Positions 51,735 to 52,136 of a stretch of 64,000 nucleotides of DNA are shown here, piece after piece; the first letter of the stretch is position 1; each line of letters begins with the position of its first letter. This stretch comes from Candidatus Bathyarchaeota archaeon. GTDB lineage: Archaea > Thermoproteota > Bathyarchaeia > 40CM-2-53-6 > RBG-13-38-9. The DNA is taken from positions 224,001 to 288,000 of the forward strand of contig CAWECG010000001.1 of assembly GCA_963807605.1 (NCBI GenBank). Direction: 5' to 3'. A program made the position numbers and the translations under genes. The notes under the pieces are model-generated. The model was not told where the DNA came from. It ran no database searches and saw nothing but the letters and a program-made list of their open reading frames with translations.

Positions 51735-52136
51735 CTACCAATAACGTTGAGGTGGAACGGAGAGACCGTAACATTGTGGACAGAACACCATGTTGAAGTA
51801 ATGTCTTCCACAGGCCTTACAGATCGAACGATTGCATCGACTGCATATGTACATAGCGGGAAGCTCACGATGGTAGCTGCAGGTACCCATAGAAGGAATC
51901 CTCATTGAGATAGCCCTTGCTTGAGGCATGGAAGGAGTTTGTTGAATCTGAGGGATACCCGTAGGTGAAATTACCCTAATTGCGGGGGCTGGCTTAGGCG
52001 CCGGTTGGACGGATACGGTTGGCGCTCCCACGGAGGCCATTGGAACGGTTGGAGGAGGATACATAGAACTTGCGCAGTTGTAACAGAACTTGGCTCTCTT
52101 TGGGTTAGCCTTGCCGCACTTTGGGCATGTTGGCAT
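51735..52136 (-). CDS. Zinc ribbon + B-box-like zinc finger protein, last gene of the Ubl operon
   Basis: CPKCG..AKFCYNC; Pro-rich linker; CSYHRELPAMYICSRCNRSICKAC...FCPQC. Confidence 0.85.
   Translation of the reverse strand: MPTCPKCGKANPKRAKFCYNCASSMYPPPTVPMASVGAPTVSVQPAPKPAPAIRVISPTGIPQIQQTPSMPQARAISMRIPSMGTCSYHRELPAMYICSRCNRSICKACGRHYFNMVFCPQCYGLSVPPQRYW

Follow-up and report, generated by a model that had tools for sequence, protein, structure and literature searches.

The SB gene, an open reading frame with an ATG start, lies at 51735-52136 on the minus strand of the window, that is, the 64,000-nucleotide stretch of DNA from Candidatus Bathyarchaeota archaeon analysed here, and encodes a 133-aa protein with a zinc ribbon, a linker, and a B-box-like finger. 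A Shine-Dalgarno-like GGAGG (52142-52146, minus), read from the sequence, is situated 5 nt upstream of the SB ATG. Along the coding strand, the TAG stop codon of the E1 gene is followed by GGGAGGATTAA and then by the ATG of SB, leaving an intergenic gap of 11 nt that holds the strong GGAGG. On the 3′ side, the next minus-strand gene is a methyltransferase-like ORF that starts 512 bp downstream, and hence SB is the last gene of its unit. The 13 close homologues of SB are found in Bathyarchaeia and are named Bathyarchaeota or Bathyarchaeia proteins by their sources.

SB closes a minus-strand cassette of six genes arranged in the order LB, Ig-repeat membrane protein, Ubl-GG, E2, Ubl-E1, and SB. 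LB (55546-56535, minus), recognised by Pfam, is a long paralogue of 329 aa and is 51% identical to SB over the finger. It contains a zinc ribbon, a linker motif of the SB type, a B-box with Asp as ligand 6, Pro/Gly/Met repeats, and a hydrophobic C-terminal part that is read as putative transmembrane segments. SB is therefore one of a conserved pair, a soluble copy and a membrane-anchored copy (LB), and not a lone protein. The second gene (54297-55382, minus) encodes a membrane protein with Ig-like repeats, which matches Pfam DUF5980 and carries no JAMM domain here. The Ubl (53996-54247, minus) is 83 aa long, matches Pfam ubiquitin and TUG-UBL1, and is 74-94% identical across the order; it ends at the GG directly before the stop codon, whereas the Ubls of some relatives have 1-9 residues after the GG. 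The E2 (53408-53992, minus; 194 aa, Pfam UQ_con 63.4 bits) has the UBC fold with YPxKPP, HPN, the catalytic Cys, and W-K-P, and aligns to UbcH5/Ubc4-type E2s in the PDB alignment. In the alignment to UbcH5-type E2s, the loops contacted by RING-type E3s, YPVKPP and W-K-P, are both kept. In the E1 (52148-53389, minus; 413 aa), Pfam recognises a ubiquitin-like domain at the N-terminus (residues 11-63, 31.8 bits) and, after it, a ThiF adenylation domain (172 bits). In addition, a stand-alone JAMM/MPN protease of 162 aa is encoded at 37840-38328 on the plus strand, with a Pfam JAB match of 35.6 bits and an intact H-x-H-x7-S-x2-D motif. The locus thus contains the parts of an archaeal eukaryote-like ubiquitin operon: a co-oriented Ubl-GG, a UBC E2 with HPN and Cys, a ThiF-type E1, and an associated JAMM.

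The SB protein has three parts. The N-terminal zinc ribbon, C4-x2-C7-x10-C18-x2-C21 (52074-52127, minus), is invariant in the alignment of the 13 homologues and passes the cut-offs of both Pfam DZR (28.4 bits, cut-off 27.3) and Zn_Ribbon_1 (25.9 bits, cut-off 25). Residues 26-80 are Pro-rich, and the AF2 pLDDT falls below 50 for residues 29-79, as for a disordered linker. The C-terminal part is an eight-ligand binuclear finger extending from C86 to C122 (51771-51881, minus), which sequence profiles place in the prokaryotic B-box type. In the translation, its ligands read C86-x2-H89-x8-C98-x2-C101-x4-C106-x2-C109-x9-C119-x2-C122. An earlier sequence-only reading had described exactly this spacing, preceded by an N-terminal zinc ribbon and a Pro-rich linker, and each of these elements was recovered. 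Within the linker, a motif KPxPxV[KR]V[VI]xP (K48-P58; 51963-51995, minus) is invariant in the long paralogues (19 of 19) and recurs in the short ones (about 11 of 18); it may be a functional element. Two V-R-F-x-[VI]-[IL] stretches in the C-terminal 40 residues of the E2 (53408-53992, minus) resemble the V-[KR]-V-[VI] of the SB/LB linker, and the two kinds of stretch may bind a common partner.

All 12 ligands of SB, in the ribbon and the finger, are invariant in the 13 homologues, which are 57-96% identical. We aligned 32 finger domains from the short and long paralogues of 20 genomes across the order and found that seven of the eight B-box ligands are invariant, with either Cys or Asp as ligand 6. 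Y88 is also invariant, and L92, P93, A94, R100, R103, I105, Y113, and P120 are at least 90% conserved. When the whole 2.65-Mb genome is read in six frames (16,655 ORFs), only SB and the paralogue at 56535-55546 show the strict finger pattern. The finger pattern of SB, together with its conservation, is more than chance. In a tree of the 32 finger domains, the short and long types each cluster and the short ones evolve faster; the columns are too few for a date of the duplication.

SB scores 22.8 bits against Pfam zf-B_box (PF00643), and 23.9 bits in the genome scan, just below the cut-off of 24.1, with a match that spans profile positions 3-34 of 42. The cut-off is passed by six of the ten orthologues and paralogues tested (24.2-31.5 bits), and zf-B_box is the commonest and best family for every domain of the alignment (32 of 32), so that the description of the finger as B-box-like rather than RING stands at the profile level. 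The SB finger has the ligand spacing of B-boxes (C-x2-[CH]-x7-12-C-x2-[CD]-x4-C-x2-[CDH]-...), with Cys/Cys as the last pair instead of the eukaryotic His/His. Searched against 1.84 billion proteins, a profile of the 32 domains matched 965 representative clusters (E<=0.001). The sampled distant cluster members are B-box domains, several of them above the Pfam cut-off, and their hosts include a Ser/Thr kinase with WD40 repeats, a DnaJ/FGE protein, a winged-helix regulator, and a CAAX protease. A motif, C-x2-H-P-x3-A-x3-C-x2-C-G-x2-[ILV]-C-x2-C-x9-10-C-P-x-C, runs through the whole family. Because of the Pfam scores, the distant profile matches, and the shared motif, we assign the SB finger to the prokaryotic branch of the B-box family. 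Y88, L92-P93, R100, R103, and Y113 are conserved in the cassette fingers of SB and LB but not in the wider B-box family, and these residues suggest a common partner of SB and LB.

Searches with RING models gave a different picture. The RING regular expression does not match SB, zf-RING_2 does not match at the SB locus, RING profiles find nothing significant on SB, and RING families match only a minority of the 32 SB/LB domains, weakly. Searching PDB sequences with the domain profile likewise gave nothing significant, with TraR at an E of 0.007 and the B-boxes of TRIM28 and PML at an E of about 0.5. In the ESM Atlas, SB finds its own Bathyarchaeota cluster (0.88), plus sub-threshold bacterial clusters with a zinc ribbon and Prok-RING_1, which serve as leads only.

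The AF2 model of SB residues 78-133, a confident one (pLDDT 82), has short hairpins, and a helix starts only with the last C-x2-C pair. The segment from ligand pair 3 to ligand pair 4 is modelled with strands (domain residues 34-36 and 39-41), and the predicted finger accordingly lacks the central RING helix, with a β-hairpin in place of the helix by which RINGs bind E2. The best full-length superpositions are with the cross-brace fingers of the FYVE/Rim type, Z 5.3-4.5 over 48-51 residues with an rmsd of 2.4-3.0 Å; the B1-box of PML (Z 2.9, 39 residues aligned), CONSTANS (Z 2.8), and the TRAF3 RING (Z 2.5) rank lower. The Z values are low, and hence only a common arrangement may be claimed from them. 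No more can be read from the model than a binuclear finger of the cross-brace type that is devoid of the central RING helix. For the full-length SB model, Foldseek returned weak RING, B-box, and ribbon rows, weak because the SB linker is disordered.

Fingers of the FYVE, Rim, and rabphilin type resemble SB both in giving the best superpositions and in a similar central segment, C-x-R-C-G-R-x-[IF]-C-x2-C. The phosphoinositide-binding motifs of FYVE fingers are WxxD, R[RK]HHCR, and RVC. These motifs are absent from SB residues 80-125, and for lack of them a FYVE identity of the finger was rejected. The Z values are too low to reach beyond the shared arrangement, and the FYVE profile is not among the listed Pfam matches of the 32 finger domains. 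We also considered an HbYX-like docking of SB to the proteasome through its ...RYW tail, and gave this reading up, since conservation of the tail stops at the family.

Other treble-clef-like and ribbon proteins were noticed in the same genome. Two paralogous small proteins of 62 and 84 aa (G000:C1:492712-492900 and G000:C1:553766-554020; L072:2713-2901 and L073:2767-3021) carry a C-x2-C-x10-C-x2-C-x4-C-x2-C-x3-H-x6-H finger with B-box1-like spacing, for which the Pfam matches are weak (FYVE 21 bits, Trim66 B-box 13-16 bits). The N-terminus of the protein at 44449-45336 (plus) reads as an AN1-like zinc finger, behind which lies a membrane region containing HExxH. On inspection by eye, the protein resembles a site-2-type membrane protease that carries a treble-clef finger, a combination that would agree with the link published for prokaryotes between AN1/B-box fingers and membrane peptidases. 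A 206-aa protein that contains a Pro-Ile repeat (48050-48670, plus) also has generic zinc ribbons at both ends, and a 327-aa protein (39161-40144, plus) has two of them at its C-terminus.

A second conjugation locus of bacterial style occurs in the genome at G000:C3:412295-417682 (locus L074:3796-9183), and may be a defence or mobile-element system. It encodes a protein of 229 aa in which a stretch, 'YPADYP', is E2/UEV-like, an E2-like protein of 116 aa, a 433-aa JAB-E1 fusion, a 747-aa HerA/TraG-like ATPase, and a 226-aa protein with, by eye, a coiled-coil-like N-terminus, then an eight-Cys finger and a winged helix. The finger of the 226-aa protein weakly resembles the second half of the SB finger; homology of SB to this zinc-finger/wHTH protein was not accepted, the pairwise match (E 7e-6) being driven by the Cys residues.

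We compared 20 loci from relatives, spanning several families, and the cassette order LB-IG-Ubl-E2-E1-SB is kept in 17 of them. The exceptions are G013, without SB after E1; G063, in which SB is located elsewhere; and G128, with a lone B-box protein. The E2-bearing lineage G013 keeps only LB, which means that SB is dispensable there. In a class sample of 201 genomes, the finger is present in 35 of the 35 genomes with the E2, a finger-like match without the E2 occurs in 2 genomes, and the genera g12, g13, and g14 have neither; the relatives are not independent, and these figures are therefore descriptive. Read in that way, they describe a finger and an E2 that are gained and lost together.

In most relatives, gene 2 of the cassette is a 500-540-aa version with an N-terminal JAMM domain (JAB match). 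The stand-alone JAMM at 37840-38328 is 33-46% identical to the JAMM domains fused to this membrane protein and is likely the deconjugating enzyme that belongs to this system, now detached and 14 kb away from the cassette. In a rival explanation, SB is a partner or regulator of the deconjugating or processing protease rather than of the E2, its B-box presenting peptides or Ubl tails to the JAMM. The gene of the JAMM-membrane protein adjoins LB in relatives, a CAAX protease is fused to one distant member of the finger family, and PMC4506424, citing Burroughs et al. 2011, links prokaryotic B-boxes to the proteolysis of membrane proteins. However, SB itself is soluble and coupled to E1, and the JAMM gene lies towards the opposite end of the cassette; here, moreover, the Ubl already ends in GG and the JAMM is outside the cassette, yet SB is retained and well conserved. 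We consider this explanation improbable.

The place of SB in the cassette can be compared with 24 loci from other families of the phylum, in which the E2 is about 40-45% identical in the core. Most of these loci contain a divergent JAMM gene and then Ub, E2, and E1, and in most a RING-H2 protein of 75-94 aa directly follows E1. Many also encode, about 1.3 kb further downstream, a membrane protein (about 230-250 aa) that has its RING at the C-terminus. The fingers of these loci match zf-RING_2 in 29 of 29 cases, at about 40 bits (best E 4e-12), and the E2 is found in nearly every genome sampled of these families (17 of 17 in f41 and 23 of 24 in f46). Operons of this arrangement (loci L105-L127) belong to the Caldiarchaeum type. 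In Candidatus Caldiarchaeum subterraneum, for which two small RING proteins are mentioned (PMC6043591), the soluble RING protein srfp is biochemically required for substrate ubiquitylation and works through RING-type E2 contacts (PMC5654768). From the comparison of gene order, the slot after E1 and the membrane-anchored slot are both occupied by RING proteins in those loci and by zinc-ribbon/B-box proteins here. The sequence-only reading had placed the finger protein where a RING E3 is expected, and its position bears this out: SB directly follows E1, in the slot held by the demonstrated RING E3 srfp in sister archaeal operons.

That reading had also set against its own proposal the case of a canonical RING encoded elsewhere in the genome. 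Neither a canonical RING nor a U-box was found: zf-RING_2, zf-C3HC4_2, Prok-RING_1, and U-box gave nothing above their Pfam cut-offs in this 94%-complete genome, and the srfp profile found no full srfp-type RING in it or in 60 others of the order. The sole match of the RING regular expression in the genome (C1:41601-41897) was discarded, since no RING profile supports it. The B-box and RING sets are alike in ligand spacing (pair-x8-11-pair-x4-pair-x9-10-pair), and hhalign aligned them over 37 columns with a probability of 46% and an E of 2e-4, a match too weak for direct descent from srfp to be either claimed or excluded.

Like SB, srfp of Candidatus Caldiarchaeum subterraneum (PMC5654768) is a small soluble protein with a binuclear zinc finger encoded directly after E1, and its operon shares the Ub-E2-E1 order, a JAMM gene alongside, and a second, membrane-bound copy nearby. 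The two proteins also differ. Fingers of the srfp type match zf-RING_2 at about 40 bits and have a D-x-W helix segment between pairs 3 and 4, whereas SB matches the B-box, has a predicted hairpin between these pairs, and possesses a long linker as well as an extra N-terminal ribbon. The membrane copies have opposite domain orders, the finger coming first in LB and last in the RING operons. The small RING-H2 protein that follows E1 in the Caldiarchaeum-type arrangement is absent at this position, its slot being that of SB. The E3 activity is demonstrated for srfp (PMC5654768); that of SB is putative.

Taking these comparisons together, we propose that SB is the soluble member of a zinc-ribbon/B-box pair serving the Bathyarchaeial Ubl-E2-E1 cascade, and that it acts in an E3-like or adaptor capacity in the role filled elsewhere by RING proteins, a proposal for which we see an even balance of probability. 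In this proposal, the binuclear cross-brace finger would dock on the E2, either free or as the E2~Ubl thioester; the zinc ribbon, with the conserved linker motif, would hold the Ubl, the Ubl domain of E1, or the substrate; and the three parts together would promote or direct the transfer of Ubl to cytosolic targets. LB would have the equivalent role at the membrane, next to the membrane-bound JAMM protease. The more specific statement, that the working E3 of a complete archaeal Ubl-E1-E2 cascade is a B-box-type finger and not a RING, in a soluble and a membrane-anchored form, is offered tentatively and is rather doubtful.

An E3-like function is supported by the fixed membership of SB in the cassette (17 of 20 loci), by the 11-nt gap with GGAGG after E1, by the coupling of the finger to the E2 in 35 of 35 genomes, and by the failure of four Pfam models, the regular expression, and the srfp profile to find a RING or U-box in the genome. 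By analogy, the equivalence of the slots points in the same direction, as the pair of soluble and membrane RINGs is mirrored by the pair of B-box proteins, and the RING-contact loops YPVKPP and W-K-P retained by the E2 are consistent with it. The case is weakened by the predicted fold, from which the central RING helix is missing and which superposes better on FYVE/Rim fingers than on solved B-boxes or a RING, by the ambiguous hhalign match to archaeal RINGs (probability 46%), which may or may not reflect kinship, and by the dispensability of SB in G013. It is also weakened by the domain family itself, which is widespread in prokaryotes on proteins that have no tie to ubiquitin (kinases, HTH regulators, DnaJ proteins, and CAAX proteases), by the published view that prokaryotic B-boxes work with membrane peptidases (PMC4506424), and by the TRIM B-box, which is chiefly a module for assembly and regulation (PMC13591260).

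The zinc ribbon bears on another explanation, in which SB serves as a reader or scaffold and has no catalytic part: Ubl or Ubl-conjugates would be bound by the ribbon, the linker motif, or both, and the B-box would oligomerise as in TRIMs, so that SB collects or routes conjugates, for example to the proteasome, Cdc48, or a membrane machinery, without stimulating the E2. The ribbon has the spacing C-x2-C-x3-N-x6-C-x2-C, and the N-terminal part of the full SB model superposes on the RanBP2-type fingers of Nup153 (Foldseek probability 0.77, 24 residues). One type of ribbon heads SB, LB, and the JAMM protein of one relative, which suggests a common ligand for the three. The V-[KR]-V-[VI] of the linker also resembles, in its sequence, the motifs that may bind Ubls by strand addition, and the B-boxes of TRIMs mostly serve assembly and regulation rather than catalysis (PMC13591260). 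Against this, the ribbon matches generic ribbon families only, and ribbons of the SB type are common in this genome on unrelated proteins and are not specific to the cassette. A Thr-Phe pair is the ubiquitin-binding signature of NZF fingers, and the SB ribbon is without it. A reader or scaffold also leaves unexplained why the RING slots are vacated in exactly these lineages, and we regard this explanation as unlikely.

Two lysines, K9 in the ribbon and K48 in the KP motif of the linker, are frequently conserved and would fit a further possibility, namely that SB stands outside the machinery and is a target of the cascade, as a dedicated substrate or for auto-regulation, conjugated for instance on one of these residues. 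Certain bacterial E1/E2 systems offer an analogy, in that they modify the product of a gene in their own operon. The lysines, however, are not invariant across the order, and a substrate role leaves unexplained both the membrane paralogue with the same cytosolic module and the replacement of the RING in the two slots; we consider it very improbable.

The known B-boxes to be compared with SB are of two kinds. Prokaryotic B-boxes (PF00643) share the family-wide motif with SB and LB and are often N-terminal to membrane segments, as in LB. In PMC4506424, citing Burroughs et al. 2011, this branch is assigned to the folding, stability, and proteolysis of membrane proteins and is said to act with membrane peptidases and not with ubiquitin. 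Whereas those B-boxes are described apart from any ubiquitin system, SB and LB are fixed members of a Ubl-E2-E1 operon and have extra conserved residues in common (Y88, LP, R100, R103, and Y113). The B-boxes of TRIMs resemble SB, going by its profile matches and predicted fold, in being binuclear cross-brace fingers of one Pfam family that are tied to the ubiquitin machinery, and one RING-less protein with B-boxes, TRIM16, is reported to act as an E3 (PMC3357404). Unlike the TRIM B-boxes, SB ends in a C-x2-C pair after 9 residues instead of His/His, has neither a coiled coil nor a RING within the same chain, and matches solved B-boxes only weakly in its model (Z 2.8-2.9).

Both the operon type and the finger family are known; their combination, a conserved Ubl-E2-E1 cassette with B-box-type fingers in the ligase slots and no RING found in the genome, did not appear in the literature searched, and a paper on a Bathyarchaeial ubiquitin operon was not found there. 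The occurrence of B-box-type fingers in a Ubl cassette runs against the generalisation on prokaryotic B-boxes published in PMC4506424. Archaeal ubiquitin operons are models for the origin of the eukaryotic system, and the sole ligase type described in them is the RING. Here, a whole order of Bathyarchaeia combines a highly conserved Ubl (74-94% identity), E2, and E1 with B-box-type fingers in both ligase slots. If these fingers are not ligases, the cascade works without an E3 or with another E3, which would also be informative. If they are, the cassette would make it possible to study, in a minimal system that can be reconstituted, if and by what means a B-box activates E2~Ubl, a question that applies to TRIMs as well. 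RING-less, B-box-driven ligation would then exist in nature in a form reconstitutable from four small proteins, and the association of the B-box with ubiquitin would date to the archaea, before the eukaryotes.
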